Positions 3,212 to 39,321 of a DNA stretch of 64,000 nt are shown piece after piece; the stretch's first letter is position 1; each line of letters opens with the position of its first letter. The notes beneath the pieces were generated by a model, which saw only the letters and a program-made list of their open reading frames with translations, was not told the DNA's origin and did not search any database. The DNA is from Candidatus Obscuribacteraceae bacterium (lineage in GTDB: Bacteria; Cyanobacteriota; Vampirovibrionia; Obscuribacterales; Obscuribacteraceae): NCBI GenBank assembly GCA_044229845.1, contig JBGASG010000002.1, positions 352,001-416,000 of the forward strand, written 5' to 3'. A program made the translations under genes and the position numbers.

Positions 3212-3225
3212 AAGTGATATCACTT
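3212..3225. promoter_or_regulatory. Palindromic intergenic motif AAGTGATATCACTT (single copy)
   Basis: Perfect 14-bp palindrome between the divergent caspase-TPR and PAS genes; member of the window-wide family. Confidence 0.7.
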
Positions 3226-3382
3226 ACACTTTTTCCTTTGGGCAGGGTGCTTTATTAGGATTAAATTGAATTGTCAAGAATTAGCCAAAAACAGATGGTA
3301 TTCTTTTCGGACGTTGGCAGATCGGCCCGCGTTCTTTAGAACGGCACGCAGGCGCGCGCCTTGGAGCAAGGTCGCTAGATTA

Positions 3383-4540
3383 ATGGACACACATCAACTC
3401 GGTTTCCAAGCGGGACAAGCCCTGGATGGCTATTTGAGTCGACTGCTCGACTCAAATGTTATCGGAATGATTTGCAGTGATATCTATGGACGCGTCTACG
3501 ATGCCAACGACGCGTTCCTAAATCTGGTTGGATACAGCCGCCAGGACATGCAGAACGGATTGTTACGGTGGGACAGAATCACTGCTCCGGAGTTTCTTGA
3601 AGCAAATGCAGCCGCGGTTGAGCAGCTCAAGCTGACCGGGCACATGCAACCGTTTCAGAAAGAGTACTTTCATAAGGACGGACATCGAGTGCCGGTGACC
3701 GTTGGTGCGATGACTCTGGATGGAGCCGGTCATTGCCTGGCTTATATCGTCGATCACAGCGATCATAAAGAAGTACTGCGCCTTTTGAACGAGAGCCAGG
3801 AGAAGTTTCGCATGTTGACGGAAGCGATTCCTACCATGGTCTGGACCGCCGGCAATGGTGGACAGGTCGACTACGCAAACAAGCGGTTTCTTGAATACAG
3901 CGGGATTAGGGCAACGGACGACAACGGGTTTTCCTGGCAACAGGTTGTGCACCCGGAGGATCTTCCGCTGCTCCTGCGGCGCGGCGAAGAAGCAGCTCTC
4001 GCCGGCAGCAAATTCGAAGTGGAAGCTCGCTACCGCAGCCGCAGCGGAGAGTACCGCTGGCAGTTGATTCGTGCGCAGCCAATGACGATGTCGGATGGCG
4101 TGGTTAAGTGGTTCGGCACCAGTACCGACATAGATGATCAAAAGCGTGTCGAAGCTGAATTGCGGCAGGCGGAGGCACGCTTGCGAGGGCTGGCGGAAGC
4201 GATTCCGCAGATTGTGTGGACTGCTCAGGCTGACGGTTCAATCACGTTTTTCAATCATCGCTGGTTTGAATACACCGGACTCTCGCTTGAGCAGAGCCTT
4301 TCCGGCGGATGGAATTTGTTGATCCACCCTGAGGATGCAAAAGGTTATCTCGATGAATGGGCTCGGGCTGTAGCTACAGGCGATTCGTTCGAATACAAAT
4401 TTCGCCTCAAGCGGGCGGTTGGTGTGAAAGCTCAAAACGGATATCGCAGTCATCTCTGTCGCGCCGTAGCGGTTCACGACGCAAACGACGCCGTCATCGA
4501 GTGGTTCGGCACCTGGACCGACATTCAAGGCGACAGTTAG
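3383..4540 (+). CDS. PAS-domain protein (3 PAS/PAC, no output domain), paralog 1
   Basis: DANDAFLNLVGYS, VHPEDL, WFGTSTDIDD, FFNHRWFEYTG and WFGTWTDIQ motifs; start set at ATG 3383 by alignment to the paralogs. Confidence 0.88.
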   Translation: MDTHQLGFQAGQALDGYLSRLLDSNVIGMICSDIYGRVYDANDAFLNLVGYSRQDMQNGLLRWDRITAPEFLEANAAAVEQLKLTGHMQPFQKEYFHKDGHRVPVTVGAMTLDGAGHCLAYIVDHSDHKEVLRLLNESQEKFRMLTEAIPTMVWTAGNGGQVDYANKRFLEYSGIRATDDNGFSWQQVVHPEDLPLLLRRGEEAALAGSKFEVEARYRSRSGEYRWQLIRAQPMTMSDGVVKWFGTSTDIDDQKRVEAELRQAEARLRGLAEAIPQIVWTAQADGSITFFNHRWFEYTGLSLEQSLSGGWNLLIHPEDAKGYLDEWARAVATGDSFEYKFRLKRAVGVKAQNGYRSHLCRAVAVHDANDAVIEWFGTWTDIQGDS

Positions 4541-4783
4541 TCTGGCACTGCGACAATCTGTACTGCAACAATCCTCATTCGCCGCTAGTCGAAAGACAGA
4601 CCGCTGAGAATGAGATGTACGCAGGATCCGAGAGACATAGTGGTTAAAACGATTGTCAAGTTGCGGCGAGCAGTCCGTGCTATTCTTCTGCGGCGTGACG
4701 GTGAACACGCGCGAAATCCCCAGGAAGTTCGCGCTTCTCGCGCGCTTGCGTTTTGCGGAACTCAGGTGCGGTATTGGTATTTC

Positions 4784-5947
4784 ATGGACAGGCAACAAAT
4801 TGATGCCAAAACCGAATACAACCTCGACGAATACTTGAATCGTCTGTTGCACTCTAACGTGCTCGGCATCCTTCGTTGCGATGTCTACGGCAACATCTTC
4901 GATGCCAACGATGCGTTTCTGGAAATCATCGGGTACTCGCGCGATGAGATGAACAGAGGCGAGGTGAAGTGGACCGAGATCACTCCGCCCGAGCACCGAG
5001 CCGTCGATGAGCAGGCCATTCAACAGTTGAGAGAAACCGGTCATGCGCTGCCGTTTCAGAAAGAGTATTTGAACAAACGCGGGCAACGCGTGCCGGTTAC
5101 GATCGGAGTGACGGCGCTCGATGGCGAGGGCGCACACTGCCTTGCATACGTGATCGACCACTCCGAACATCGTGCGGTCCAGACACGACTGGCCGACAGC
5201 GAACAGCAATTCAAGCTGCTGGCGGAAACCATTCCGCAACTGGTGTTTGCAGCCGCTCCGGGCGGCAAGACGTTTTACGCCTATCACAGATACATTGAAT
5301 TCACCGGCGTCGACCCGATGGGCAATGACGGCTATGCGTGGAGAGAATTTGTCCATCCGGATGACTTGCCACACATCATGGCAGAAGGTGAACTGGCACT
5401 ATCTAGAGATCAGCCAATGGAAATGGAAGCGCGCTTCCGCACCAGAGAAGGACAGTATCGCTGGCAGTTGATCCGCGGTATCAAGATGGTAATGGCTGAC
5501 GGTTCCATCAGATGGTTTGGCACCTGCACCGACATCGACGATCAAAAGCGCACCGAGAACGAGCTGCGCGAAGCGGTATCACGTTTTCGCACTCTGGCGG
5601 AAGCGATACCACAAATTGTTTGGGCAGCAAAGCCAAATGGCGACATCAACTTTTTCAATCATCGCTGGTTCGAGTACACGGGATTGTCGCTTGAGCAGAG
5701 CCTGGACGGTGGTTGGCAATTGCTGATTCATCCTGAAGATGTAGATCAGTACATGTCAGACTGGCATAAAGCACTGGAAACAGGCGATACTTTCGAGTGC
5801 AAATTTCGTCTGAAGCGGGCCGTCGGTGTGCGCGCGAAAGGCGGCGGTTATCGCGAACAGCTCTGCCGGGCAGTCGCGGTGCAGAGCTCCAGCGGCAAGA
5901 TTATCGAATGGTGCGGAACCTGGACCGACATCCAGGACCAGGAATAG
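4784..5947 (+). CDS. PAS-domain protein (3 PAS/PAC, no output domain), paralog 2
   Basis: Colinear with paralog 1 over full length; ends WCGTWTDIQDQE; start at ATG 4784 by alignment. Confidence 0.88.
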   Translation: MDRQQIDAKTEYNLDEYLNRLLHSNVLGILRCDVYGNIFDANDAFLEIIGYSRDEMNRGEVKWTEITPPEHRAVDEQAIQQLRETGHALPFQKEYLNKRGQRVPVTIGVTALDGEGAHCLAYVIDHSEHRAVQTRLADSEQQFKLLAETIPQLVFAAAPGGKTFYAYHRYIEFTGVDPMGNDGYAWREFVHPDDLPHIMAEGELALSRDQPMEMEARFRTREGQYRWQLIRGIKMVMADGSIRWFGTCTDIDDQKRTENELREAVSRFRTLAEAIPQIVWAAKPNGDINFFNHRWFEYTGLSLEQSLDGGWQLLIHPEDVDQYMSDWHKALETGDTFECKFRLKRAVGVRAKGGGYREQLCRAVAVQSSSGKIIEWCGTWTDIQDQE

Positions 5948-5977
5948 ACCGATAGACCGGAAACAGGTGGACTGGCG

Positions 5978-7138
5978 ATGCAAAGACGCGATTCAAAATC
6001 GCAGCCTCAATATAGTCTCGACGAATATTTAAGTCGACTACTGCACTCAAACGTAATCGGCATCGTCAGTAGTGACATCTTCGGACATGTGTACGATGCG
6101 AATGAAGCGTACTTGAAGATCATCGGCTACACGCGACAGGAGTTGCAGGACGGCGCGATTCGCTGGGACGCTCTGACGCCGCCGGAGTTTCATGAATGCA
6201 GTCAGATGGCAGTTGAGCAGTTGAAACACAAAGGATTCGCACTGCCTTTTCAAAAGGAATACATCCATAAACTGGGACACCGGGTGCCGGTGACGGTGGG
6301 CATGACCGCGCTAGATCCGGCCGGGCATCACTGTCTCGGATATGTCATCGATCACTCCGAACACCGCCAGGTGCAAAATCGTTTGCGCGATTCGGAGCAG
6401 AAGTTTCAGATGCTGACCGAAGCGATTCCACAACTGGTATGGACGGCCGGCGACTTCGGCAAGTGTGAGTACGGAAACAAGCGTTACCTCGAGTACACAG
6501 GCATCGATCCGACAGCCGACGAAGGACTGGCGTGGAAGAGATTTGTGCATCCGGATGATCTGCCTTATCTGGAAGAACGCGCGGATGCTTCACCGAACGA
6601 GAACACCTTTGAGGGCGAAATGCGCTTCCGAACCACCGATGGTGCCTACCGGTGGCAACTGGTGCGCGGCGAGAAATTTCGCATGACCGACGGCAGTCTC
6701 AAATGGATAGGCACTTGCACCGACATCGAAGATCAAAAACGCATCGAAGGCAGTTTGCTGGAGGCGATGGCGCGTTTCAGCACGCTCGCTGAAGCGATTC
6801 CGCAGATTGTCTGGACCGCCGGCAGCGACGGCCGAATTTCGTTCTTCAATCAACGCTTCTATGAGTACAGCGGTCTATCCGCGGAACAGAGCCTGGCGGG
6901 CGGCTGGCGCCTTTTGATTCACAAGGACGATTTAAAAGATTACTTCGCCGGCTGGGAGAAAGCTCTGGAAAGCGGCGATACTTTCGAGTGCCGGTTTCGG
7001 TTGAAGCGGGCGGTTGGCGTCCGGGCCGCCGGTGATGGTTATCGCTGGCATCTCTGCCGCGCGGTGGCATCACAGCATCCGCTCGGCACCATCAATGAAT
7101 GGTTCGGCACCTGGACAGATATTCAGGATCAGGATTAG
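5978..7138 (+). CDS. PAS-domain protein (3 PAS/PAC, no output domain), paralog 3
   Basis: Colinear with paralogs 1 and 2; ends WFGTWTDIQDQD. Confidence 0.88.
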   Translation: MQRRDSKSQPQYSLDEYLSRLLHSNVIGIVSSDIFGHVYDANEAYLKIIGYTRQELQDGAIRWDALTPPEFHECSQMAVEQLKHKGFALPFQKEYIHKLGHRVPVTVGMTALDPAGHHCLGYVIDHSEHRQVQNRLRDSEQKFQMLTEAIPQLVWTAGDFGKCEYGNKRYLEYTGIDPTADEGLAWKRFVHPDDLPYLEERADASPNENTFEGEMRFRTTDGAYRWQLVRGEKFRMTDGSLKWIGTCTDIEDQKRIEGSLLEAMARFSTLAEAIPQIVWTAGSDGRISFFNQRFYEYSGLSAEQSLAGGWRLLIHKDDLKDYFAGWEKALESGDTFECRFRLKRAVGVRAAGDGYRWHLCRAVASQHPLGTINEWFGTWTDIQDQD

Positions 7139-10259: not shown

Positions 10260-10392
10260 GTAGTAAGGGCTCAAAAAACCGTACAGTTTAACTATATATT
10301 GACGGCGAGGGATGTCAATAGAGTATTCAATCCAGAACACCCGTTTGTTAATTCCCAATTCTAGCCCTCATGCACCCCCCAAAAAAAATCTG

Positions 10393-10467
10393 AAGTGATA
10401 TCGCTTTGAGTCGAAACTGAAGCGATATCGCTTCAGCTCTGGCGGAAATCGGGAAGTGATATCACTT
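10393..10467. repeat. Three copies of the AAGYGATATCRCTT palindrome
   Basis: Cores at 10393, 10420 (extends to the perfect 20-mer CTGAAGCGATATCGCTTCAG) and 10454. Confidence 0.85.
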
Positions 10468-10672
10468 CAGTTCTGACGGTAGTCATGCGCTGAGGTGTCC
10501 GCAAACACGCTGCGTGCAATTTTCATCCTAAATTCGAGTATGGCGAAGTGGTCAGCATAGTGCATCGAATTCGCAAGGTATAGCTCGAAACAGCCGGCTG
10601 ATGTGATGCAGGGCGCGTGACACCGCATATGGTATCGATATCCACGCCAGCAACCTGGTGGCATTGCACACT

Positions 10673-11614: not shown

Positions 11615-11846
11615 ATGCTGCCGTTTCCTTTGAAAGGCTGATGGTGCCAATTGTGCCGAGAGTCGGAGATTATCAGTGACGACCGTTAATTTGAGCAGGT
11701 TCCTTGTGGCTTTCAACAAATTTGCCACAAATGAACCCTACTATCAATTCGGGCAACGCTATCTCCCCCTCTAGTTTTGCCTGCCAAAACCGCCACCTTT
11801 GCACCATCTTTTCTAAACCTGCCGATTGCAGGGGAGTTTCAATCGC

Positions 11847-14800
11847 ATGTCCGATCCCCCCGGAACAGATCCTTTTGAAGTTGTAGAAACTGAATCAGCA
11901 TGTGTTGAAGGTCAGACTCGCAGCACCGAAGGACAACGCGCCGCTGCTGAAGCAGAGGACAATTCAGCTGTTCAATGGAATTCCGGCGCTCAAAGAGCAC
12001 TGGCTCGCGTTCGCAGTGAGAGCGGAGCACACGCCGCCGTCATGGAAACGTTCGACGCAGGCAATGGTTTCTCACTCGAAGGTCTGCAGCAAGCGGGCAC
12101 ATTTTTGAAGAATCTCTGGGGCCGTGTGCGCGCTGCTGAGTCCGCACCGCTTCCGAGCGCAGATTCGCAGCATCCGACAGCCAGCGAGTCCGGAGACCCG
12201 AGTCCCCTCGGTCAGCCCGGGCAACCTGGTAGTGGCTCGCCAACTGCGCTGGCTCCGTTGGTTCCGCCTCCCGGCGGAAAAAACAAATCGGTGGGAGCGG
12301 TGAACGAAGGTGGTGCCAGCGACTCTCCAGAAGACGGATTGCTGGGCGGCGTCAAGAATTTGTTTGGTGGGGCATTCAACTCGGGTTACTCGGGTTGGTT
12401 CGTTCCGAGAGGGCTCCAGCCCAGCGGTTACAGCGGCCACGACAACCACGTAAATGACAATCATGGGAACGGCAATCAGGGGAACGGCAACCAATTTAGC
12501 GATATCGGCGATGGCACCCCAGTCATGCCTCCAGTGCCTGGCGGGAAGAAACACTCCTCGAATTCCGGCACATCCGGTGCCACCACCGATGATACTCAGC
12601 TGCCCTCCGCCGCAGCGACCGCGCTTCCGCTAGACGGATTGTTTACAGAGTTTATCCAGAGGACATTTCGAGGCGGCGCAGTGCACCCTCAGAATGGCGC
12701 ACATGACACTGGTTCGAACGGTGAAGTTGATAACGGACTGAAGGTTTCGAAGCCGGCGAAATCGCCGCTGCCGACCGCCGGTGATTTCGTCGAGGTCGCG
12801 ACGGCCGGCACGGTTGGAGCTGCGGGCACGACAGGCACCATGGCACCCGGCGATGACAAGAATCGCACCACATACACTACCAGCTGGCAGAATATTTTAA
12901 AGACGTTCGGATTCGATTTCACGGAGCCCCAGCCAGAGTCAGGCGGACTCTCTGCGCAACCGATCAAGAAACCCAACAGCCCAACGCCCCTCAACAATGA
13001 CGGCGCACCGGGAACGGTCGGCGGAGTTCCCGGTGTTCCGGGCGGCGCTCCCGGTGATCAGGGTACCACTAATGTCGTGCTGCCTCTGTCCGGAAAACAC
13101 GGCGAACAGAACAAAGAGAACGGCGAGGAAGAAACGACCAAAGCATTGAAGTCGGCGTTCGCATTCGGCCAATCTACTTTGATGACGCTGCTCGGTGATT
13201 ACACTCCACCGTCCAAGCGTCAGGTAGATCCGCCCCCGTCCGGCGGCAGCATCAATAACACCGACGAAATCCAAAATGCCCAGACTCGACGCCACGAGAC
13301 CAACAGCAATTTGACACCAGGGGTCGCTTCGCCAGGAAAAACGGAAGTGGCTGCGGTAACAGCGCAACAATACGAAGACATAAAGCGCCAACTCGGCTTC
13401 TTCGGAACTTTTTTCCCGACCGCCGAAGAACTGAAGTTACCGGGCGGTGGTACCACGGTCACTAACGGCACGATTTCCCTCCCGGAACTCAAACGCATCG
13501 TCACGATGGGATCGGAGACACTACAGAGCGGCTTTCATGCCTCAGCCGACGCAGTGACGGCCGGAACGTCGGGATCAACAAGTGAGCAGCAGACGTTAGC
13601 GCTCAAGAAAATACCTAGCATTTTCAATGTGTTCACCAACGAGTTCGTCGTCGAGAATGGCGGTGGCACAGCAATCAGCGAACCGGTGAAAAAGGCGGGC
13701 GCGTTCATTTTGACCACCGCGAACGAACCATTCTTTAAGGATGACCCCAACCTCAGCAACCTCGGGCAGCGCCCGGCATTAGTCAAGCAAGAGAATGTCA
13801 ACGAACCAGCCGAGTTGCACCGCCTGCCGCTTGCTGCCGCGCTGGCGTCGGCTGTCACCGACACCGCCGCGGATCTGACGCTGAACGCCAGACCGCTGAA
13901 GATGGTCGAAACTGCGCTTCTGGACGCCGGCAGATTTCAATCGGCGTTGCTGCGCAACAGTGCGGCAGAAACCGAAGCAATCGCCGCGCTTAAGGTAAGC
14001 ACTGTCGAGCGATTGCAGTCGAGCTGTGCTGATGTTTCGTCCGATGTACGCGTGGCCGCGCCTGATGTCCGCGTGGCTGCCTCTGCAAACGAGAAATTGG
14101 ATAACCCAGCGCCCGATGCACCACGCGTGCTCATGGCTGGATTCACCTCGAAACCCATTGGTACAGAGGATCAAACCGCTTCCGGAGCGTTGAGAATTCC
14201 GCCTCTCGGATCGATGTTGTCGATAGCCGGTCTTGCCCGCGAATCGATGGACGCCAACGCATCGTTATTGCTTGGCAAACTCAGCGACCAGGGGTCATTG
14301 AACGGCAAACTACCACTGGGCGAAATGATCGGGGTGGGCAAAGTTTCCACAAATATCGGTGCCACCGACGGCATCGGAAAACTGCCGCCAGGCATAGCAG
14401 CTGCCGACGGCAAACTCGCTCAATCTGGGGAGTTCGGCAAAACTATGCTGGCCGAGATCACCCGATTGGCGCAACTGATTGAAGCCGGCAAGAACGGCAG
14501 CCTGATCTCTGCCGGGGGACGATTCCCAGGCATGATCGACATCGGCAAACCGGGTGAGAACATCGTCATACCAGGCCTGGAAGGACGCATCGGTCGCGGC
14601 GCAGTAAATGTCAGTGTCGGGGTCGGAGCCGAGGTTCTGGGAGACCGCGGTGCTCGTTTTGTGGCTACGGATATAGCGAACAAGGGCATCGGAATTGTCA
14701 TCGCCAGCGGCATCGAAACCACGCTCGCAGGAGATCGAATTGGTCTGATCATCGGCAAAGGCGAACGAATCCCCTTCACCGAAGTGATCAGTATTCGTCC

Positions 14801-16499
14801 GGCGGGAGATCAATCAGGATTCACTTTGACCATTTCCACTGCAACCGGCGAGAAGGTTATCCGCGGCGGCGGCAAGAAGAAGGATCCAGACGAAGAAGAT
14901 GCGGTGACCGACGATCAGAGCAACGGTGGACTGGGATACTTCACCACCGGACAGGATCCACAAAATCAAGATCCAAATAATCCTGGAGGGTCATCTGGCA
15001 CCGATCCGCAATCACTCGCGGCGGTCAGTCAAATCGACCCGAACTCAATATTGCCCGGGATCACAATTGTAATGACCGGACCAACCGATCCAAATGCTAA
15101 TGCCAGCGCAGCCGCAAATCCAACTTCCGTCGCGCAGATTGTCCAACCACCAAATGCCCAGATGGAGTCTACCGGTACGCAGTTCATCACACCAGCAACC
15201 GTCGCGCTGGTAAATACCGGACCCGAATCTCCAGTTGCTTATTCAACCAATCCTCAGCCCGCATCTCTGGCTCAGACAGAATACGTGCAGGCAACAAGCA
15301 CGTATCAAGAGGACACTCCCACGCCAGCGCAGCAGAGCACTCCTTCAACAGCGCAGCAGATTGCTGCCACTGCGCAAACGCAGGACTCTCCCTCCACGCA
15401 ACCCGACACTTCTTCAATCCAGAAACCGGACACTCCTTCCTCCACACAGACGGTCCAAGATCCTGTAACGGCACAGCATGTTCCAGCCTCTATATTCAGC
15501 GTTGAACCAATGAACTCGGTACAGCCGTCCGTTACTACAACGCAGGATCAGATTGCCACAGTTCAGCCATTGCCGACCGCTGATTTCACTCCGATTGGCG
15601 GCCAACCACCACAAGCGTTCCTACAGCAAATGTTGGATGCTGTGTCGCCTGACGAACGCGCTCCAGAAGAGCAGGGAACACAACCGAATCAGGCTACTCA
15701 CTGGATTGATCCAACTCAATTTTCGACCCATCCCGATCCGTATGTAGCAACATCAGCAACATCGACATATGAGACAAGTCAAATTCCTGACTGCATGGAG
15801 ATGCGAGCTGATTTGAGTCAGGAAAAAGTTCCAGAGCGGCGGATCGATAAGGACGACGACGATAGAAATAGCGAACTAGAGACACTTCGTTCCTGGAAGG
15901 AAAAGGAAGCTCGGCGCATGATGGACACACTCCTGGCCGATCAAGCAACCCGCAAGGATCAGCGCCTCTTCGTAGAAGAAGAAGTTCGCACGCGCTACAT
16001 TGTTCGCCCCGGCGACACACTCGAATCGATCGCCGCCAGCGTGCTGGGCGACAGCCGACTGGCGTTGCTAATTTTCAGAATCAATCGCCCGGTGATCCGC
16101 GTTACCTATCGCGACAACAAACAAATCATTGTTTTGAAACCGAATACCATTTTGCAGATGCCTACGCGAACTGAGATCGAGATGTTCCGCGCTACGATGA
16201 GCAGCAAGAAACCCAAGAAATCACGACAATATGTCAGCGACGGCGGACCAACAACGCGCATCAATTACACCGTCAGGCTTGGCGATACCCTGCGCACAAT
16301 CGCAACCCGCCATGCGTCCCTCCAAGACGGATCACTGTGGACATTGATCGCCGAGATCAATGGACTGAGTTCAGCTGCTGACACGAGTGGGACGCCAACT
16401 GCTCGCATTCAACGCGGTACGACCTTGATACTGCCTTCGAGTGAAGAGATTAGCGAATTCCGAGCACGTCAAACATCCGCAGTTCAGAATGCAGTATAA
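11847..16499 (+). CDS. Very large low-complexity protein with two C-terminal LysM-like domains
   Basis: YIVRPGDTLESIA...IFRIN and YTVRLGDTLRTIA...IAEINGL; GGGGAG RBS before ATG 11847; about 1550 aa. Confidence 0.8.
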   Translation: MSDPPGTDPFEVVETESACVEGQTRSTEGQRAAAEAEDNSAVQWNSGAQRALARVRSESGAHAAVMETFDAGNGFSLEGLQQAGTFLKNLWGRVRAAESAPLPSADSQHPTASESGDPSPLGQPGQPGSGSPTALAPLVPPPGGKNKSVGAVNEGGASDSPEDGLLGGVKNLFGGAFNSGYSGWFVPRGLQPSGYSGHDNHVNDNHGNGNQGNGNQFSDIGDGTPVMPPVPGGKKHSSNSGTSGATTDDTQLPSAAATALPLDGLFTEFIQRTFRGGAVHPQNGAHDTGSNGEVDNGLKVSKPAKSPLPTAGDFVEVATAGTVGAAGTTGTMAPGDDKNRTTYTTSWQNILKTFGFDFTEPQPESGGLSAQPIKKPNSPTPLNNDGAPGTVGGVPGVPGGAPGDQGTTNVVLPLSGKHGEQNKENGEEETTKALKSAFAFGQSTLMTLLGDYTPPSKRQVDPPPSGGSINNTDEIQNAQTRRHETNSNLTPGVASPGKTEVAAVTAQQYEDIKRQLGFFGTFFPTAEELKLPGGGTTVTNGTISLPELKRIVTMGSETLQSGFHASADAVTAGTSGSTSEQQTLALKKIPSIFNVFTNEFVVENGGGTAISEPVKKAGAFILTTANEPFFKDDPNLSNLGQRPALVKQENVNEPAELHRLPLAAALASAVTDTAADLTLNARPLKMVETALLDAGRFQSALLRNSAAETEAIAALKVSTVERLQSSCADVSSDVRVAAPDVRVAASANEKLDNPAPDAPRVLMAGFTSKPIGTEDQTASGALRIPPLGSMLSIAGLARESMDANASLLLGKLSDQGSLNGKLPLGEMIGVGKVSTNIGATDGIGKLPPGIAAADGKLAQSGEFGKTMLAEITRLAQLIEAGKNGSLISAGGRFPGMIDIGKPGENIVIPGLEGRIGRGAVNVSVGVGAEVLGDRGARFVATDIANKGIGIVIASGIETTLAGDRIGLIIGKGERIPFTEVISIRPAGDQSGFTLTISTATGEKVIRGGGKKKDPDEEDAVTDDQSNGGLGYFTTGQDPQNQDPNNPGGSSGTDPQSLAAVSQIDPNSILPGITIVMTGPTDPNANASAAANPTSVAQIVQPPNAQMESTGTQFITPATVALVNTGPESPVAYSTNPQPASLAQTEYVQATSTYQEDTPTPAQQSTPSTAQQIAATAQTQDSPSTQPDTSSIQKPDTPSSTQTVQDPVTAQHVPASIFSVEPMNSVQPSVTTTQDQIATVQPLPTADFTPIGGQPPQAFLQQMLDAVSPDERAPEEQGTQPNQATHWIDPTQFSTHPDPYVATSATSTYETSQIPDCMEMRADLSQEKVPERRIDKDDDDRNSELETLRSWKEKEARRMMDTLLADQATRKDQRLFVEEEVRTRYIVRPGDTLESIAASVLGDSRLALLIFRINRPVIRVTYRDNKQIIVLKPNTILQMPTRTEIEMFRATMSSKKPKKSRQYVSDGGPTTRINYTVRLGDTLRTIATRHASLQDGSLWTLIAEINGLSSAADTSGTPTARIQRGTTLILPSSEEISEFRARQTSAVQNAV

Positions 16500-18143: not shown

Positions 18144-19289
18144 CTAAATAGTCACTAGCGGCGGCGATACATAAGACCTGACTTGCAGATCGCTAATTGG
18201 GTCTGCTCGGCGACATGCTGCGAGCAAGGAACCTTGCGGCCAGCGCTCTGGATTGACGAAGAAACAGTACACAGCCAGATAATGCTGTAAACGCTTTCTG
18301 CTCACCCCCTGATATGTCGCTCGAACAAAGTCAATTGCATTCGACACCCGAGTAGCTAGTGATGCCCCGAGCGTTGCAGAACGCGCTTCACTCTGCTCTT
18401 CAGTAAGTTCATCCGTCCCGCCTCTAACTTCCCTTAAGCGAGCAAATCTCTCTCCCGGAAATCGAATAATTACTCCACTGAATTCAAGCAAAGTCAGTGT
18501 TGAAGCCAGTTCAGCTGGTTCCATTTCCAGTCGATCACGCAAGACATCAAACCAAACCGGCTCCTCAGTTAGCGATTCAAAGACTAACCTCTGAGCCTCG
18601 GTCACTGCTTCTCCAAGTTGTAGGTCTTCCAGATGTATTTCGTGATGCTGCGCGCTGTGGCGTCGATCTTCGTCGCTGCTGATTTCGTCGCTCCCGATTT
18701 CATCAAGTTGCGGCTCATCAAGTTGCGGCTCATCGCCAAACATCCCGTCGATCACCAGTTGTTCAGCCAGAGGATGACTTCCTGCTGGAGTTTCGATGCT
18801 TCGCCGAAAAATGATCTTCGCAAAAGCGCGCGAGGAAACCAATTCAACCCCGTCGACATCAGGCTGTCTTATCAAATCGTCGAGCACCATTCCCATCTTC
18901 TGAAACATCTTCCAAATTGCGCCATAGCTTGCTCCAAGGAAGTTTGCAAACCGATTTGCATTGATCTGAACTCGTCGCTCGAATAGCCAAATCGCAAATA
19001 GCCAGTGCATTGGATCCCTTATCCCTTCAAAAAACGTTCCGGCCGTCAGCCAAGTCTTGGTATGACAATTAGGGCAAAGCATCGTTCGCGCGTCGATGCG
19101 CTCCAGTCCATGCGCTCCGCATCGTTTGCACACATATTCGCGATCGGGATCATCCACTCTGCACAATTCATCAACCTGAGCCTGCGCAGTTGGATAGACC
19201 CTAGAGAACAACTCCATTTCCACCGCAAGCGGATCCACAGTTAGTTCTTGGGCCTTCGATTTTTTCGATTTTCGTGATTCGTTTTGCAT
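18144..19289 (-). CDS. IS1595-transposase-derived protein: Zn ribbon/HTH, DprA-like winged helix and IS1595 C-terminal motif
   Basis: CKRC...CPNC-TWLTAGTFF; VFESLTEEPVWFDVL...LTLLEFSGVIIRFPGERF; TYQGVSRKRLQHYL; no recognisable DDE core. Confidence 0.7.
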   Translation of the reverse strand: MQNESRKSKKSKAQELTVDPLAVEMELFSRVYPTAQAQVDELCRVDDPDREYVCKRCGAHGLERIDARTMLCPNCHTKTWLTAGTFFEGIRDPMHWLFAIWLFERRVQINANRFANFLGASYGAIWKMFQKMGMVLDDLIRQPDVDGVELVSSRAFAKIIFRRSIETPAGSHPLAEQLVIDGMFGDEPQLDEPQLDEIGSDEISSDEDRRHSAQHHEIHLEDLQLGEAVTEAQRLVFESLTEEPVWFDVLRDRLEMEPAELASTLTLLEFSGVIIRFPGERFARLREVRGGTDELTEEQSEARSATLGASLATRVSNAIDFVRATYQGVSRKRLQHYLAVYCFFVNPERWPQGSLLAACRRADPISDLQVRSYVSPPLVTI

Positions 19290-19310
19290 GAGTAAGTCCT
19301 CCTACTCATG
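19287..19310 (-). promoter_or_regulatory. Hairpin sequestering the start codon of the IS1595-derived gene
   Basis: Minus strand reads CATGAGTA-GGAGGACT-TACTCATG; SD in the loop, ATG inside the 3' arm. Confidence 0.65.
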
Positions 19311-19381
19311 TAACGATGTCACGCGCAAAAAAGTTCAATCATCCGAGATTAAATGAATGGGTGACCAAGAGGGTCAAAGCA

Positions 19382-19422
19382 AATAGATATCAGTTCGATG
19401 TAAACCCGAACCGATATCACTT
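19382..19422. repeat. Two degenerate copies of the GATATC palindrome
   Basis: AATAGATATCAGTT and AACCGATATCACTT; the second matches the 37537-37562 copy at 23 of 26 nt including flanks. Confidence 0.7.
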
Positions 19423-19452
19423 GGGCATTATCTACCAGATGGTGACTTTGAC

Positions 19453-23847: not shown

Positions 23848-23857
23848 GCCAAAACTC

Positions 23858-23986
23858 AATAGATATCACTTCCGGATATCAAGGATGCCGAATCGCAAGT
23901 GATATCGCTTGCGATTTTCGTGACGACGCAGAACGATATCACTTCATGATTCCACGAGCGCCATCACTCAAGTGATATCTCTTGAG
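23858..23986. repeat. Four copies of the GATATC palindrome directly after glgX
   Basis: Cores at 23858, 23897 (extended near-palindrome AATCGCAAGTGATATCGCTTGCGATT), 23931 and 23970. Confidence 0.85.
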
Positions 23987-24399
23987 CATTTACGGGTGGA
24001 GTGTGCTCGTTTTCGTTGGGGCTGTCAGGCTGACGTAAGGTTTGCCGTAAGCCTCGTGTCAGGTTCGAGCGGTACATACATAGTTGACGACACAGAGCCC
24101 ATAAAATTTCTGCGGCTCACGTGAATCGTCGCGGCTTGACACTGCTATTGGTGCTCCGAAAAGTGCTTCTGCGGCTGCCTGAGCCCATCTTCACGCATGC
24201 TTCACGCGCATCACCGGTGGGTTGATTCGCAGAAACAAGTGAAGTAGGATCAAAAAAAGCCGGCATGCAATGAACGTTTGCCGAACACAAATCGATCACA
24301 AACGCGGCTACTCAAGAGCGTTTCAATTAGGCACCATATTTGGTGCCACGCATCAGAGGCAGTAACAGACGGTGCACAGTGACACCGTTGGAGGATCAA

Positions 24400-24675: not shown

Positions 24676-24692
24676 GTCTTGAACTAAGACTT

Positions 24693-24740
24693 CGGCTAAG
24701 TTTTTGGCTAAGTTTTTGGCTGAGTCTTCGGCTAGGTCTT
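24693..24740. repeat. 12-bp tandem repeat x4 at a convergent junction
   Basis: CGGCTAAGTTTT TGGCTAAGTTTT TGGCTGAGTCTT CGGCTAGGTCTT. Confidence 0.75.
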
Positions 24741-26654
24741 AGGCACCAGGCAGAGCATTCCCAATGGCGGCAGCGTCAGGGTTAATGACTGCTGACGCCC
24801 GTGAATGGGCATCGGATTGGTGTGGACTACGCCCATATTGCCGACGCCGCTGCCACCATAGTCTATGGCATCGGAGTTCAACACTTCCTGCCACTCGCCG
24901 TGACGCGGAACACCAATCATATAATTGAACCTGGGCAATGGTGTGAAGTTTGCCACCACTACCATCGGATTACCGTGGGCGTCCATGCGCAGATAGGTGA
25001 GGACTGACTGCTCCCAATCATTGCAGTCGACCCATTCGAAGCCCGCTCCACGACAGTCCTGCTCATGCAAGCAACCGTGGTCTCGATATAGCTTGTTCAG
25101 GTCGGCTACGAATTTTTTCACGCCTTCGTGGTTGTAGTAGTTGAGCAAATGCCAATCAAGCGAAGTTTCGAAATACCATTCGTTGAATTGCGCAAACTCG
25201 CCGCCCATGAACATCAGTTTCTTCCCTGGAACAGTCCACATATAGCCATAGAGCAGGCGCAGGTTGGCGAACTTTTGCCAGTAGTCACCGGGCATCTTGT
25301 TGAGCAACGACTTCTTGCCATATACGACTTCGTCGTGGGAAAGGGGCAGCACAAAATTCTCTGACGACCAATAGAGGCTGCGGAAAGTCAGGTTATTGTG
25401 GTGGTACTTGCGATGCACCGGATCGCGCTCAAAGAACTTCAGCGTGTCGTGCATCCAGCCCATGTCCCACTTGAAGCCGAAACCCAATCCGCCGACGTAA
25501 GTAGGTCTGGAGACCTGCGGCCAGGCGGTGGATTCTTCCGCGATCATGAGCGTGGCAGGAAACTCGGAGTGGACGGTTTCGTTCAGTTTCTTCATGAACG
25601 AGATCGCTTCCAGGTTCTCATTGCCGCCGTAATCGTTGGCGATCCACTCACCGCTCTTGCGCCCGTAGTCGCGATAGAGCATCGAAGCCACGGCATCGAC
25701 GCGCAAGCCGTCGATGTGAAACTTGTCCAGCCAGAAAAGCGCGTTGCTGAGCAGGAAGTTGGACACTTCGTAGCGTCCATAGTTGAACACATACGTGCCC
25801 CACTCCTTGTGTTCGCCGATCCGCCAGTCCTCGTGCTCGTACAAATGTGTGCCGTCGAAGAGCCCGAGTCCGTGCCCGTCTTTGGGGAAATGCGACGGCA
25901 CCCAATCAAGGATGACACCGATGTTGCCTTGATGCAGTTTGTCGATCAGATACATGAAGTCTTCCGGCGTGCCGAAACGGCTGGACGCCGCATAGAAACC
26001 CACCGGCTGATAGCCCCAGCTGGAATCTAATGGATGTTCCGAGACCGGCAAAAACTCGACATGCGTGAAGCCCATCTCGCTCACGTACTTGGTCAGTTTG
26101 TCAGCCAACTCTTTGTACGTGAGCCAGCGATTTTCTTCCTCGGGAACCCGCATCCATGAACCCAGATGCACTTCGTAAATCGAAATCGGTGACTCCAGAG
26201 GCGGCGTTGCACCGCGCGTCTTCAGCCACTTCTCATCGTTCCACTTATATTGATCGAGATCGAAAACAATCGAAGCTGTCTTCGGGCGCACCTCGGCATA
26301 GAATCCAACCGGGTCGGATTTTTGTTCCGCGCCGCCACCTGACTGCTCGACGTTGTATTTGTACGCCGCACCACTTTTGACACCGGGGACGAAACCAGCC
26401 CAGACGCCCGACTGAGCGATGGTTTGCAAGGGTGTTGCGTTCGCATCCCACTTGTTGAAATCACCGACCACCGTCACACGCTTGGCGTTCGGCGCCCAGA
26501 CCGCGAAGTGCGTTCCTTCCTTGCCGTCCGCACCATCTTTGATTACGTGAGCACCAAGCTTGTCGTAAACCTTCTGGTGCGTTCCCTCGTTAAACAGATG
26601 CAGGTCGTAGTCAGTGATGAAGGGCACCGCTGACTGTTGAGCCTTCGACGTCAT
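24732..26654 (-). CDS. glgB: 1,4-alpha-glucan branching enzyme
   Basis: FAVWAPNA, IYEVHLGSW, SWGYQ, DGLRVDAVASM, IAEESTAW and LSHDEVV. Confidence 0.96.
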   Translation of the reverse strand: MTSKAQQSAVPFITDYDLHLFNEGTHQKVYDKLGAHVIKDGADGKEGTHFAVWAPNAKRVTVVGDFNKWDANATPLQTIAQSGVWAGFVPGVKSGAAYKYNVEQSGGGAEQKSDPVGFYAEVRPKTASIVFDLDQYKWNDEKWLKTRGATPPLESPISIYEVHLGSWMRVPEEENRWLTYKELADKLTKYVSEMGFTHVEFLPVSEHPLDSSWGYQPVGFYAASSRFGTPEDFMYLIDKLHQGNIGVILDWVPSHFPKDGHGLGLFDGTHLYEHEDWRIGEHKEWGTYVFNYGRYEVSNFLLSNALFWLDKFHIDGLRVDAVASMLYRDYGRKSGEWIANDYGGNENLEAISFMKKLNETVHSEFPATLMIAEESTAWPQVSRPTYVGGLGFGFKWDMGWMHDTLKFFERDPVHRKYHHNNLTFRSLYWSSENFVLPLSHDEVVYGKKSLLNKMPGDYWQKFANLRLLYGYMWTVPGKKLMFMGGEFAQFNEWYFETSLDWHLLNYYNHEGVKKFVADLNKLYRDHGCLHEQDCRGAGFEWVDCNDWEQSVLTYLRMDAHGNPMVVVANFTPLPRFNYMIGVPRHGEWQEVLNSDAIDYGGSGVGNMGVVHTNPMPIHGRQQSLTLTLPPLGMLCLVPKT

Positions 26655-26657
26655 TTT

Positions 26658-30158
<3,501 letters not shown>

Positions 30159-30170
30159 GCTGCTTGCGCT

Positions 30171-32189
30171 CTACATGAAGTAATCGAAATTGTGTTCCGT
30201 TCGCAAGCGCTGCCGTACTCTAAAGATAAAAGCCGGGCTGACGTGCGGATTGAGCTCGATGTAGTTACGCGGACCGTTCCACTGAAACTTTCGCTCAGTT
30301 AGGAGATCGTGGACTTGATACCGATGTTCCAATCCAAATTGCTCAAGCGGAATATACAGATATCCAGCTTGGGTGTAGTTGGGATCGCAGTTGACCACAA
30401 TGATTAAGAGCTCGTCGTTATAAGGCGACTGGCGGGCATAGGCGATGATGTTCTCATTGTCGGTTTCGAGAAACTGCAAGTTGTGGTTAAACTGCAACGC
30501 GCTGGAATCGCGACGAATGCGATTGACGCGCGTGATGAAATGACTGATGGAGCCCTCGGCTTCCAGATTCCAGCGGCGCACCTCATACTTCTCGCTGTTT
30601 CGATACTCTTCGGTGCCCGGCATGGCATTGGCTACACAAAGTTCAAACGGCGGTCCGTAAACTCCATACGAGGCCGAGAGCGTAGCAGCCAGCACGAGCC
30701 GATTCATAAACGCCGGCTTGCCACCAACCTGCAAATATTCCGACAGAATGTCGGGCGTGTTGACAAAGAAATTTGGACGCAGGTATTCGGATACTTCGGT
30801 GCGGGTCAGCTCCAGCAGATAGTCTTCGATCTCGCGCTTGGAATTGCGCCACGTGAAGTAGGTGTATGACTGGGAGAAACCTACTTTCGCCAGATAGCGC
30901 ATCACCTTCGGGCGAGCGAAGGCTTCGGCCAGGAAGATGACACCAGGGTCGGTGCGCTTCACTTCGCGAATCAGATATTCCCAGAAACGATACGGCTTGG
31001 TGTGCGGGTTGTCGACACGGAAAATTTTGACGCCGTGTTCGACCCAGAAGAGCACCACATCTTTGAGTTCTTGCCAGAGAGCGCGCCAGTCGGCGCAATC
31101 GAAGGCGATCGGATAGATGTCTTCGTACTTCTTAGGTGGGTTTTCCGCGTACTTAATCGAGTTATCGGCGCGGCGGTAGAACCAATCGGGATGCTCCTTC
31201 ACCCACGGGTGATCAGGTGAGCATTGGAACGCCAGGTCGAGGGCGATCAAAATTTCGCGCTTGCGGGCTTCTTCGACCAGCTTATCGAAATCAGCCATGG
31301 TCCCCAGCTCGGGATGCACAGTCATGTGCCCGCCGGCTTCGCTGCCGATCGCCCAGGGGCTGCCGGGATCGTTATCCGATGCCAGAAGCGTATTGTTTGG
31401 CCCCTTGCGATTGGTGATACCGATCGGGTGAATGGGCGGCATGTAGAGCACGTCGAAACCCATGCCCCGAATGTACGGGAGCACGTGAATCACATCTTTG
31501 AGCGTGCCGTGCTTGTTCTCTTTGCCGGTGAAAAGCGAACGAGGAAACAACTCGTACCAGGTGCTGAACAGGGCGTAATGCGGTTCCACAGAAACAGAAA
31601 GATTCTTGCCGTAGTCGCAAACTTCACCACGCGGTGCGTAAGTGAACATCAAATGCTCGATACGTGCATCGGTCAAAAGCGGCGCCATTACTCCGCTTTT
31701 CAGCATGCTGATGAAACGGCCGATTTCTTCCTTTTCTTCGCCCTTTGCCTTGCCGTGCGCTGCCTCTAAGAGCAAAACGCCCTCGGCGATTTCTAGCTCG
31801 ATTTCCTGTCCTGCCTGCAGTTTGCGGGACGTATCGCGCCGCCAGTTGGCGAATTTGTCAATCCAGCCTCTAAATGTGTATTCATAGTGACCGAGTTCCA
31901 GAACATCAAACTGCCCGGCAAAACGATCGGGCTCGACCGTGGGCAAAAGACGCCTCTCCGCCCACTGCGCAGTGCCGTGCTTGCGAAACAGGACCGCGCT
32001 GGCAACCAGGTTATGGCCGTCGGCGTGCAAGTCGGCGGCCACCACGACAGGCTGCCCGGTGACGCGTTTGACGGCAAACTGTCCACAGTCGATTTCCGGA
32101 TAGACACCCTCAATGACAACACGGCTGGGCAATTCCATCGCCGACAGCCGGTTTTCGCCAGTCTGCTTGGCAGTACTTGATTTCGTCAT
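30171..32189 (-). CDS. glgE: Alpha-1,4-glucan:maltose-1-phosphate maltosyltransferase
   Basis: WYELFPRS, PPIHPIG, QCSPDHPW, ENPPKKYEDI, FRVDNPHTKP and FLAEAF; GGAG RBS before ATG 32189. Confidence 0.96.
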   Translation of the reverse strand: MTKSSTAKQTGENRLSAMELPSRVVIEGVYPEIDCGQFAVKRVTGQPVVVAADLHADGHNLVASAVLFRKHGTAQWAERRLLPTVEPDRFAGQFDVLELGHYEYTFRGWIDKFANWRRDTSRKLQAGQEIELEIAEGVLLLEAAHGKAKGEEKEEIGRFISMLKSGVMAPLLTDARIEHLMFTYAPRGEVCDYGKNLSVSVEPHYALFSTWYELFPRSLFTGKENKHGTLKDVIHVLPYIRGMGFDVLYMPPIHPIGITNRKGPNNTLLASDNDPGSPWAIGSEAGGHMTVHPELGTMADFDKLVEEARKREILIALDLAFQCSPDHPWVKEHPDWFYRRADNSIKYAENPPKKYEDIYPIAFDCADWRALWQELKDVVLFWVEHGVKIFRVDNPHTKPYRFWEYLIREVKRTDPGVIFLAEAFARPKVMRYLAKVGFSQSYTYFTWRNSKREIEDYLLELTRTEVSEYLRPNFFVNTPDILSEYLQVGGKPAFMNRLVLAATLSASYGVYGPPFELCVANAMPGTEEYRNSEKYEVRRWNLEAEGSISHFITRVNRIRRDSSALQFNHNLQFLETDNENIIAYARQSPYNDELLIIVVNCDPNYTQAGYLYIPLEQFGLEHRYQVHDLLTERKFQWNGPRNYIELNPHVSPAFIFRVRQRLRTEHNFDYFM

Positions 32190-32329
32190 AAAAGCGCTCC
32201 GTCCGCTGCGGACGCAAGATCGTACCATTTGAGGTTCCTGCAGGTCCGGGAAATCAGGGTAAATCCTGGAATCGGTCGTTCCTTGTCCCGCTGTTTCAGC
32301 CTTTGGCAACCGGCTAAAGTTCAACTCTA

Positions 32330-32343
32330 AAGCGATATCGCTT
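32330..32343. promoter_or_regulatory. Palindromic motif AAGCGATATCGCTT (single copy)
   Basis: Perfect palindrome between glgE and the divergent small ORF. Confidence 0.7.
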
Positions 32344-32365
32344 GAGGTTCGGGAGGACCGGAATC

Positions 32366-37305: not shown

Positions 37306-37502
37306 TGGTATAACCTCCTTCACGTTGTTATCCATTTCATGCGCGTAAGTGCCGCCACGCCAGTTGAACGAATGCGGAGAGCACTCACTTTTCCATCATG
37401 GAGTTTATCTAGCTAATCGCCATCTATGGGCGGTTTTGCCACTTTTCTTAAGGTTTTTGGGGGTGGCTGAGCAGTGCGCTGAGTCGCCGCTTGTCTACGC
37501 CG

Positions 37503-37596
37503 AAGCGATATCACTTGAGCGCGAAGCATCCTGAACAACCCAAAGTGATATCACTTGGGCATGTAGATTCGACGTCCAGCCGAAGCGATATCGCTA
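37503..37596. repeat. Three copies of the GATATC palindrome at an exact 40-bp period
   Basis: AAGCGATATCACTT (37503), AAGTGATATCACTT (37543), AAGCGATATCGCTA (37583). Confidence 0.88.
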
Positions 37597-37602
37597 TCGG
37601 TG

Positions 37603-39276
37603 CTAGCTGTCGGACTTCTTCTTGCCGGATCCCCACCCGGGCATGGCCCGCATCCAGGGGGCATACTCGGCAGGTACTCCCAACCCGGCCTTCAGCTTTG
37701 ATTGCTTCTCGCTGACAACAGCCAGCTTGGCTTCTCGGGCCAGGTCAGCCCACGCAATCGGTCCGGTTGGAGTTTGAGTTTCTGCCTCGGCCACTTTGAC
37801 CCGGTCACGTCCTTCATACTTGGCTACATCTAGAGCTTCCTCAGCCAGGTTGAGCAACTTGACTGCCGACTCGGCAATCTCCGGGAACGCAGCCATGCCG
37901 ATGGAGACGGTCACCATGCCAATCCCCGGCACGGGATTGCTTTTAATTGTGTGACGCAGACGCTCCGCCACATCGGCGGCATTCTGCTTGGGAGTCTCAG
38001 GCAGCAAGATGGCGAACTCCTCGGCGCCGTAGCGAGCAGGCACATCAATGTCGCGCAGGGCACCCTTAATCACTTTCGCTACATGCCTGATGACTTCGTC
38101 GCCACGCTCCTGTCCGAGCAGTTCGTTGACACGAGACAAATGATCAATGTCCAACAAAAGCAAGGACAGGGAGTGTTTGTGACGGGCAGAACGCTCGATT
38201 TCGCGAGCGAACGCCTCTTCGAAGTGCCATCTGTTGTAGAGGGAGGTGTGGGCATCTTGGATGGTTTGTGCAGTTGCCGACTCGTGGGTGAGCGCCACGT
38301 GCAAAGCCGTGCTTGTCTGAGCGGCAAGCGATTCGAGAAGTTCGAGTTGTTCACGGTGGAACGCCCGTGATTCCTGGGCGAACAGCATGATCACGCCCAG
38401 CGGCTCGTTGCCGGCTACAAGAGGGGTCGCCACCACCGATCCAAATGTGCCACCACCCGGTGCCATCGGCAGGTCACCCGAGTAGGAGCTGGCATCGGAT
38501 ACATATTCGGTCTTGCCGGCCACAAGCGCGCCGCCGGCGATGGTGTTTTCGACATTCAGTTTGAAGGTGTGGAAACTATTGCCGTCCAATCCTTTGAAAG
38601 CAGCCAACGTGAATGTGCGCAACTTCGGATCTACTAAGAGGACAGCGCAATGAGGCGTATTGGCCAGGATCAACGAAGTGTCTGCTGCGATTTGCAGCAC
38701 TTCTGCGATGCGCAGAGTACTTCCGGAAAGTGACACCGAAGTACGGTACAACGTCGCCAAGCGCTCTCGCTCGTATTCGCTGCGTCCAAAAAGGATCGCG
38801 TTGGCGACGGCAATTGCAGTCAAGTCAGCTAGATTCTGGAAAAAGTCCAGTTGGTCGATCAGCGAGATATCGCTGACATCCATCTGCACAGCGCCCACTA
38901 AGAGGTTGCCGGCAATCAGCGGCAGTCCCAACTGAGCGACGGAGTTCTCTCGCTTCATGATTGAGATACTGATATCGGGAGCATCGCCGGCGTGGACAGC
39001 GGCACCCTGACGGCGTTGCACAACGTGCTTCAGCAATGTCTCCGCCGTGAAAGAGAGGATTCGCATCTGCTCGATGGACGCATCGGTATAGCCGTACGCA
39101 TTCATCAACTTGAGGGACAAACTCTCGTTGTCGGAGAGGAAAATCGCTACTTTCGCGCCGCCACCCAGTTCGGCAAACTGCGCCAGCGAAGCTTCCAGAA
39201 CGTCTTTCAATCGCAAGGAAGCAAAGAGTGTCTTCTGCAATGTGAGCAGTCTAGGCAGAAGCGTTTCGGTGATCAT
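37603..39276 (-). CDS. GAF-GAF-GGDEF protein with degenerate active site (GAEEF)
   Basis: Two GAF-like regions; LLLDIDH and RDIDVPARYGAEEF; start set at ATG 39276. Confidence 0.85.
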   Translation of the reverse strand: MITETLLPRLLTLQKTLFASLRLKDVLEASLAQFAELGGGAKVAIFLSDNESLSLKLMNAYGYTDASIEQMRILSFTAETLLKHVVQRRQGAAVHAGDAPDISISIMKRENSVAQLGLPLIAGNLLVGAVQMDVSDISLIDQLDFFQNLADLTAIAVANAILFGRSEYERERLATLYRTSVSLSGSTLRIAEVLQIAADTSLILANTPHCAVLLVDPKLRTFTLAAFKGLDGNSFHTFKLNVENTIAGGALVAGKTEYVSDASSYSGDLPMAPGGGTFGSVVATPLVAGNEPLGVIMLFAQESRAFHREQLELLESLAAQTSTALHVALTHESATAQTIQDAHTSLYNRWHFEEAFAREIERSARHKHSLSLLLLDIDHLSRVNELLGQERGDEVIRHVAKVIKGALRDIDVPARYGAEEFAILLPETPKQNAADVAERLRHTIKSNPVPGIGMVTVSIGMAAFPEIAESAVKLLNLAEEALDVAKYEGRDRVKVAEAETQTPTGPIAWADLAREAKLAVVSEKQSKLKAGLGVPAEYAPWMRAMPGWGSGKKKSDS

Positions 39277-39307
39277 GGCGTCATAGCCTCGACAAGTAGT
39301 AAGTGTC

Positions 39308-39321
39308 AAACGATATCGCTT
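39308..39321. promoter_or_regulatory. Palindromic motif AAACGATATCGCTT (single copy)
   Basis: Between the divergent GGDEF and HIT genes; shares the CTTGAG flank with other copies. Confidence 0.65.

Follow-up and report, generated by a model that had tools for sequence, protein, structure and literature searches.

A 64,000-nt stretch of the genome of a Candidatus Obscuribacteraceae bacterium (contig JBGASG010000002.1, positions 352,001 to 416,000; hereafter the window) carries intergenic palindromes that belong to a gene-halo system, in which each copy of a companion gene is surrounded by its own variant of the palindrome and is preceded by a promoter-like box shared with genes of DNA uptake and recombination. 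Both the association of gene and halo and the shared promoter are well supported. In the window, the companion gene is an open reading frame (ORF) on the minus strand (18144..19289; family search, Pfam, profile alignment and structure model). Its product, P0001 (381 aa), is, as judged from its sequence and structure model, a derivative of an IS1595 transposase in which a DprA-type winged helix stands where the catalytic DDE core would be. This protein likely binds the palindromes in cis and is predicted, from its sequence and by analogy with DprA, to recruit the host helicase ComM during competence; an effect of the gene-halo system on transformation is likewise a prediction.

Palindrome clusters and their companion genes

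Exact matches to AAGYGATATCRCTT occur eight times in the window, compared with 0.01 expected, and matches with up to two mismatches occur 17 times, compared with 0.56 expected. A weight matrix trained on 118 genome-wide copies (≤1 mismatch) showed that the motif is a palindrome of ~24 bp whose centre, GATATC, hardly varies. With a genome-wide copy defined as ≥17 bits on this 24-bp matrix, G000 (the genome holding the window, which is its contig C8; positions given without a contig label are window coordinates) contains 159 copies in 87 loci. A preliminary description of the window, made from the letters alone, had listed about 15 copies at 7 intergenic loci, and 14 of the 15 were recovered where it had placed them, with scores of 15-38 bits. 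Pattern matching and the matrix locate single satellite palindromes at 3207..3230, 32325..32348 and 39303..39326, three-copy arrays at 10388..10472 (copies at 10393, 10420 and 10454) and 37498..37601 (37503, 37543 and 37583), and a four-copy array at 23853..23988 (23858, 23897, 23931 and 23970), none of these features being assigned a strand. The gene-proximal palindromes (19377..19427, also without a strand), which precede the promoter box of the companion gene at a distance of 50 bp, comprise the copy at 19409 and that at 19382, the latter being decayed (8.4 bits on the matrix). A further, degenerate copy reported at 60183 scores 9.0 bits, lies inside an ORF (59818-60237) and is probably background. 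The recurring flank ACTTGGGCAT is present, as described, at both 19419 and 37553, and a scan of the window against Rfam gave 0 matches at the gathering threshold.

Genome-wide, 157 of the 159 copies lie outside called genes (4301 genes from our own hexamer caller, making up 86% of the assembly), in agreement with the intergenic bias first perceived in the window, and the proximity to stop codons is also general, with 43 of the 62 loci that have an adjacent stop lying ≤50 bp from it. A palindrome inside coding sequence, in a low-complexity linker at C18:134651, is retained in the related genome G001. The dependence of copy number on gene orientation, in contrast, fails at this scale: all three classes of junction contain arrays, with 27 among the 48 co-oriented loci, 9 among the 23 divergent ones and 7 among the 14 convergent ones (co-oriented versus divergent, p = 0.21), and the 87 loci (48 co-oriented, 23 divergent, 14 convergent and two intragenic) follow the expected distribution (51/23/10; p = 0.45), with convergent junctions, at which no copy had been noted in the window, accounting for 14 of them. 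Nor is the family dispersed, the copies being regional, with 0 on the 1.07-Mb contig C1. This regional spread, the ~24-bp length of the motif and the unannotated companion ORF had all been overlooked. Across a sample of 41 genomes, 25 from the family Obscuribacteraceae and 16 from outside it, a degenerate 18-mer was enriched in the family only (≤189 copies; 0-6 in a reversed control) and stood at background level in the 16 outside genomes. Among the classes originally put forward, a lineage-specific element resembling repetitive extragenic palindromic (REP) sequences, and probably a protein-bound site, agrees with the enrichment in one family, the constrained core and the transposase-derived companion gene, whereas neither an abundant regulator nor a fixed organiser of the chromosome does, there being no orientation bias and no copies in G000 at the syntenic counterpart of the main G006 cluster.

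The dense site clusters of G000 lie on C3, C6, C8 (the window), C10 and C18. The companion family, which was uncovered through two ORFs adjoining sites in G006, has exactly five genes in G000, one for each of the five clusters and every one of them beside a site. Within 130 kb of a family gene, a span that corresponds to 18% of the assembly, lie 142 of the 159 sites (33, 65, 102, 125 and 136 within 10, 25, 50, 75 and 100 kb, respectively), and several of the remaining sites are on small contigs that synteny puts beside a cluster. Each cluster has a private half-site, namely AAGC (61/80), AACC (40/40) and AATT (14/20) in three of them and AAGT/GAGT/AAGC (83/88) and AAGT/AAGC (52/64) in the other two. 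Halos were also seen in other genera, namely in G022, where C12:168-406 kb contains 32 of the 34 copies of a private variant and the gene lies at 237 kb, in G007, with 37 of the 50 listed copies in C13:727-855 kb and the gene at 830 kb (the other 13 listed copies lie at the start of another contig, and 12 further copies fall outside the 50 listed), and in G006, with 17 perfect copies in 190 kb that holds two family genes. The syntenic counterpart of this G006 region in G000 has no copies, and the clusters are therefore not a fixed chromosomal domain. Core-pattern matches in four genomes without a full-length gene numbered 0, 2, 0 and 0. Of 55 genes examined, 50 are preceded by a palindrome, compared with 1 of 55 in a control placed inside the gene (seven duplicates or orthologues were removed beforehand and one row with a short flank was dropped). 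The rule that the sites of a gene are confined to ~100 kb around it, with a private variant for each paralogue, is unusual and implies cis action across a whole chromosomal domain.

Comparison with G001, which is ~93% identical to G000 in the compared region and shares nearly all loci with varying array lengths, points to purifying selection on the sites. Over 65 locus pairs, in which 98 sites were aligned gap-free and 27 were skipped, the GATATC core had changed at 1 of 588 positions, compared with 576 of 9292 (6.2%) in flanking intergenic DNA; the score-based choice of sites favours intact G000 cores, and with the expectation halved to 18 the result stands. Only C/T changes were seen at the Y/R position of the motif. 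Single-strand folding is weak at many sites (six of the nine tested gave -1 to -6 kcal/mol), which fits duplex recognition, and covariation between the arms in G000 was absent from clusters A, C, D and E and weak in B (p = 0.03-0.06), so that the sites there need not form a hairpin. In three pairs of loci, 14-15 of the 16 outward flank bases are shared, the members of each pair lying in one cluster and 8-42 kb apart; at a looser threshold, flank sharing is marginal (p = 0.052). In G013, nine of the 10 gene-proximal palindromes have perfect arms of 15-32 bp, with locus-specific outer sequence. Gene-proximal palindromes (L077-L086 in G013, and L051 and L136) form perfect inverted repeats of 30-64 bp with locus-unique outer arms, and some of the extended ones are centred on GTTAAC.

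The companion protein family and its promoter

P0001 comprises, in order, a zinc ribbon (C54-x2-C57...C72-x2-C75; 19065..19130) followed by a helix-turn-helix (HTH; residues ~93-140), both placed by profile alignment and the model, an invariant R-S-x-x-T..P..E motif (residues 162-176; 18762..18806; family alignment), an acidic linker, a DprA_WH winged helix (residues 228-284; 18438..18608; Pfam, fold search and alignment) and IS1595-like C-terminal helices (GVSRKxLQxYL; residues 309-345; 18255..18365; profile alignment), all encoded on the minus strand. The nearest relatives outside the family are IS1595 transposases (E 4e-23). An HHalign comparison with IS1595 (99.8%) paired the zinc ribbon, HTH and C-terminal helices confidently and almost none of the middle, with high-confidence columns to the IS1595 N-terminus reaching ~residue 140, and the score against the NCBIfam IS1595 model (NF033547) was 26.5 bits, compared with a cut-off of 75. 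None of the acidic residues that are invariant in the IS1595 alignment has a conserved counterpart in the family, in which E104, E176, D248 and E269 are the sole conserved acidic positions, and the model of P0001 (predicted local distance difference test score 79) has no RNase H sheet, its middle consisting of a disordered linker and the winged helix. No DDE, HUH or nuclease fold was recognised in P0001 by Pfam, profile, model or fold searches; the fold search matched the winged helix alone and assigned no known fold to the remainder. The protein thus resembles IS1595 (ISXO2-like; PF12760 + PF12762, NF033547) in its zinc ribbon, HTH and C-terminal helices, but the catalytic RNase H domain has given way to a linker and a winged helix.

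The DprA_WH domain (PF17782) was matched in 20 of 20 members tested, and the winged helix of P0001 is 35% identical over 55 aa to the C-terminus of the host DprA. The family retains the LE(L/F)xG motif of the DprA winged helix, in which E269, present in 55 of 56 members, is the most conserved position of the domain and is followed by L in 44 members, F, I or M in 11 and A in one. Motif spacing suggests that E269 is the counterpart of the glutamate in the E353/L354 contact pair of V. cholerae. The likeness to the C-terminal winged helix of DprA (10.1101/2024.10.21.619469) appears to extend from the Pfam domain and the motif to the contact pair. Unlike DprA, the companion protein lacks the Rossmann-fold domain for single-stranded DNA and RecA loading, and its winged helix is fused to a predicted sequence-specific binder of duplex DNA. 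Elsewhere in the protein, R68, R163 and S164 are found in 56/56 members, T167 in 52/56, P173 in 53/56 and E176 in 55/56, and the family-specific R163-S164..E176 motif sits where the catalytic domain of IS1595 begins.

Searches with a single protein as query found full-length or near full-length genes in 18 of the 25 family genomes and in 0 of the 16 outside it, with 0 to ~17 copies per genome and no full-length gene in seven of the 25. The range beyond the 41 sampled genomes rests on searches for relatives and on neighbours in a protein atlas; these neighbours are Melainabacteria clusters, one member being annotated from Candidatus Obscuribacter phosphatis. The family amounts to 676 clusters at 50% identity (E ≤1e-30), of which the best 150, those inspected, are near full length. 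In a FastTree tree of 56 rows, rooted at the midpoint, all 10 rows from G013, all 10 from G024 and all seven from G019 group by genome, and by this sequence evidence the family has expanded separately in each lineage. All five genes are at orthologous places in G000 and G001, with dN/dS of 0.16-0.38 between orthologues, the 191 neighbouring genes having a median dN of 0.008 and dS of 0.165. The sequence shared by close G024 paralogues ends, for example, at -403/+74, -157/+7 and -190/+346 relative to the assigned start and stop; the ends are thus ragged on both sides, which indicates that the gene moves without fixed ends. IS1595 elements bear terminal inverted repeats and a target-site duplication. 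No terminal inverted repeats or target duplication were seen around the companion genes, and nothing is conserved after the stop, in four pairs compared by eye, the closest of which are 78-81% identical, so that short ends could have decayed.

The companion gene of the window is preceded, 49 bp before its start codon, by a promoter-like box, TTGAACTTTTT-N12-CGT (19307..19338, minus strand). The box was found at 53 of 56 family genes, where the palindrome lies 26-102 bp further upstream. Matches in G000 numbered 36, compared with one in the reversed genome, and the box is present in 23 of 24 family genomes, with single hits in four of the 16 outside. In G000, comM is the third-best of 39 box hits, and the box also precedes comEC, comF, yraN, radC, recA, priA, dnaB, dnaE and a gene for an extracytoplasmic function (ECF) sigma factor; the companion genes have, by this sequence measure, a promoter motif in common with genes of DNA uptake and recombination. 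ComM, encoded at C6:216158-217711 in G000, was present in five of five genomes tested. The candidate competence ECF sigma factor is encoded with an anti-sigma factor at C4:10450-11076 of G000 (L175) and is preceded by the box that it would recognise. Other genes under the box include an sbcC-like gene, two DUF1800 genes and four HTH_3 genes, of which two also encode a PLD-like domain. The box precedes a second multi-copy gene as well, which encodes a 206-aa DUF6088 protein (L186, L187 and L188 in G010; L152 and L153 in G000), is near-identical at three fetched places in G010 and has ~17 listed boxes whose spacers end alike; it is possibly another selfish family that makes use of competence.

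Predicted recruitment of ComM and competing explanations

The explanation that we favour, tentatively and at somewhat under an even chance, is that of a cis-acting element in which the palindrome-bound companion protein recruits ComM and biases transformation nearby in favour of DNA carrying the gene and its sites. The winged helix of DprA binds and recruits ComM via a glutamate-leucine pair, and ComM is bidirectional (10.1101/2024.10.21.619469), being able to extend or to collapse a displacement loop (D-loop). It is proposed that a competence ECF sigma factor would turn the companion gene on together with comM, that a dimer would bind half-sites near its own gene through the N-terminal zinc ribbon and HTH, as insertion sequence (IS) transposases do, and that the winged helix would then load ComM from the chromosome side. 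D-loops formed by site-less incoming DNA would collapse or stall, shielding the gene from curing, and this is the favoured, predicted direction of the effect on transformation. The preference of IS transposases for cis action through cotranslational binding (PMC5009743) offers a basis for a bounded halo. Intact sites would out-convert mutated ones only inside the reach of the protein, a conversion advantage that would account for both the conserved core and the bounded halo, and the collapse of D-loops from site-less donors would explain the conservation of the sites without a benefit to the host. New sites and gene copies would come about by occasional ectopic recombination during transformation and not by DDE transposition. 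The more specific claim of a selfish element without transposase chemistry, which has a private palindromic barcode of ~200 kb, is switched on in competence and, by means of a captured DprA winged helix, turns ComM on incoming DNA that lacks the barcode, is possible but doubtful.

Several observations weigh against the recruitment of ComM in cis. Four public sequencing runs confirm the window and contain no empty allele of the gene or the sites, and the 65 orthologous loci of G000 and G001 yielded no clean pair of filled and empty sites. The G001 orthologue of the window gene carries a frameshift within the winged helix, but its sites have been kept. G013 and G024 carry at least 10 genes each with few satellites (16 and 15 pattern matches), which makes halos optional. 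In G014, 24 of the 50 listed sites are on contigs without a detected gene (the other 26 are on gene-bearing contigs); a hidden gene predicted for its C17 cluster was not found, and the four G014 windows fetched were gene-free. No box lies directly upstream of dprA, and the box may mark a wider recombination and repair response, because it also precedes replication genes. It is by motif spacing that E269 was paired with V. cholerae E353. Finally, the conserved residues R163-S164 and E176 may form a catalytic site for which the favoured explanation has no use, and the perfect 15-32-bp arms at the G013 genes are otherwise unexplained by it.

The last two points would be accounted for by a mobiliser resembling the REP-associated tyrosine transposases (RAYTs) but of new chemistry, which would cut at the palindrome (with R163-S164/E176 as the candidate site and ComM as a helper) and copy sites, and occasionally its own gene, nearby, the satellites being its non-autonomous progeny. 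The near-universal conservation of R68, R163, S164 and E176, the genome-specific clades of 10, 10 and seven genes, and the three near-identical flank pairs (14-15/16 bases) within clusters are all consistent with such a mobiliser; the perfect arms at nine of 10 G013 genes are what a fold-back intermediate would leave, and local hopping of IS elements is documented (PMC5009759). It is nevertheless unlikely, because no DDE, HUH or nuclease fold was recognised, no new insertion was seen over 65 orthologous loci in genomes 5-7% apart, copied gene units are ragged at both ends, neutral progeny would not keep a core with 1 change in 588 positions, and the sharing of flanks is marginal at the looser threshold.

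A host-domesticated local enhancer, in which ComM (with YraN) is pre-positioned for longer or more frequent tracts, or in which ~200-kb competence domains are set up, to the benefit of the host, would draw on the same evidence of a shared promoter and a DprA-type domain as the favoured explanation. Purifying selection on genes and sites and the five genes at orthologous places in G000 and G001 are in line with it, and ComM and YraN extend recombination tracts (PMC13663708). The positions of the halos, however, differ between genera, the copy number ranges from 0 to ~17 in genome-specific clades, with seven of 25 family genomes lacking a full-length gene, and an enhancer of replacement would, we infer, tend to erase itself; such domestication is thus improbable.

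Autoregulation is plausible in view of the HTH and of the palindrome 26-102 bp upstream of the gene's own box, but it is very unlikely that the palindromes in general are transcription-factor operators through which the protein regulates its neighbours and itself, since they show no promoter-side preference (p = 0.45), include 14 convergent loci and lie mostly ≤50 bp from a stop (43/62), the neighbouring genes are functionally unrelated, and a diffusible regulator is not expected to give positional halos. Position sites like parS or matS, or replication origins with DnaA-independent helicase loading, are barely credible. In their favour, ParB_N occurs in just 3 of 41 genomes, seven of the 25 family genomes have no strong DnaA match, six of these seven carrying the gene, and priA, dnaB and dnaE share the box. 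Against them, the clusters do not occupy orthologous positions, there is no switch of GC skew at the genes, and the gene is also present in 12 of the 18 DnaA-positive family genomes, the assemblies being incomplete. Also rejected were parS as such (ParA-like hits in G000 lie outside the clusters), a fixed position relative to origin or terminus (ParB was searched, MatP itself was not) and a phage origin (viral contigs contained no match to the protein or to the one site variant compared).

Known systems, other features and implications

REP/REPIN-RAYT systems are alike in having ~20-bp extragenic palindromes in arrays, an adjoining transposase-derived gene and a paralogue-specific sequence type; in the part of PMC3337134 on which this comparison is based, the RAYT is a short IS200-type HUH/Y protein that is single-copy per type, REPINs are inverted doublets found across the genome, and nothing corresponds to the competence promoter or the DprA-type domain. 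The companion protein, in contrast, is IS1595-derived, 330-500 aa long, without a recognised catalytic core and present in up to ~17 copies per genome, and the palindromes are self-symmetric and confined near the gene. Extragenic palindromes with one type per paralogue are common to both, whereas genome-wide dispersal is not seen here (142 of 159 copies in 18% of the assembly and 0 on C1). Membership in REP/RAYT was rejected: PF01797 (Y1) was not found in G004, G006, G007, G014, G019 or G022, its four hits in G000 are not flanked by arrays, and the companion protein has no PF01797 hit. The present system differs from REP-RAYT in ancestry, catalytic core, confinement, self-copying, promoter and DprA-type domain.

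Mobile elements that oppose curing are similar in that a mobile gene is aimed at the transformation machinery, with ComM as a frequent target, and the known strategies, in the part of PMC12378983 available, are insertion into comM or other com genes, repression (RokLS20, RocRp) and a block of the uptake apparatus, all of them cell-wide. In the present case comM is undisrupted, and the effect would be a local one directed by the sites. Multi-copy, protein-bound motifs also include matS/MatP and parS/ParB, which are regional, and DNA uptake sequences, which act in transformation. Unlike these, the palindromes described here have no fixed position and no ParB, and are neither genome-wide nor in coding DNA. 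No description of this system was found in the literature searched, which did not cover subscription papers.

Other features of the window and the genomes were recorded. An IS256-family (Mutator) element (16693-18013) lies 130 bp downstream of the companion gene and is unrelated to the palindromes; it is polymorphic, with an 8-bp duplication and an empty allele in two of the four runs. Three consecutive ORFs of 424, 445 and 386 aa (3266-7138) encode PAS domains only, with no output domain detected. A glycogen cluster with glgX, glgB, treS and glgE-like genes lies at 21616-32324, and an ORF of 1557 aa (11826-16499) has only a C-terminal LysM hit. At C18:312420-314978 of G000 (L159), a DnaB replicative helicase contains an intein bearing a LAGLIDADG domain, and C17:23500-25000 of G000 looks scrambled compared with G001, probably through a local assembly error. 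A strong DnaA match is missing from G000, G001, G003, G016, G018, G019 and G022 (87-92% complete), ParB_N is missing from 38 of 41 genomes, and priA, dnaB and dnaE lie under the competence-type box; recombination-dependent initiation is worth checking.

As a by-product, the analysis provides a candidate sigma factor for competence in the Obscuribacteraceae, together with its candidate regulon. The system also offers a testable case of why palindromes persist beside domesticated transposases and of how mobile DNA resists removal by transformation. If the recruitment of ComM is true, the companion protein would be a naturally occurring factor that loads a recombination helicase at specific sites, and the more specific, doubtful possibility of a barcoded selfish element would amount to a cis-acting, protein-level counter to chromosomal curing, by which one chromosome would be split into recombination-gated territories.

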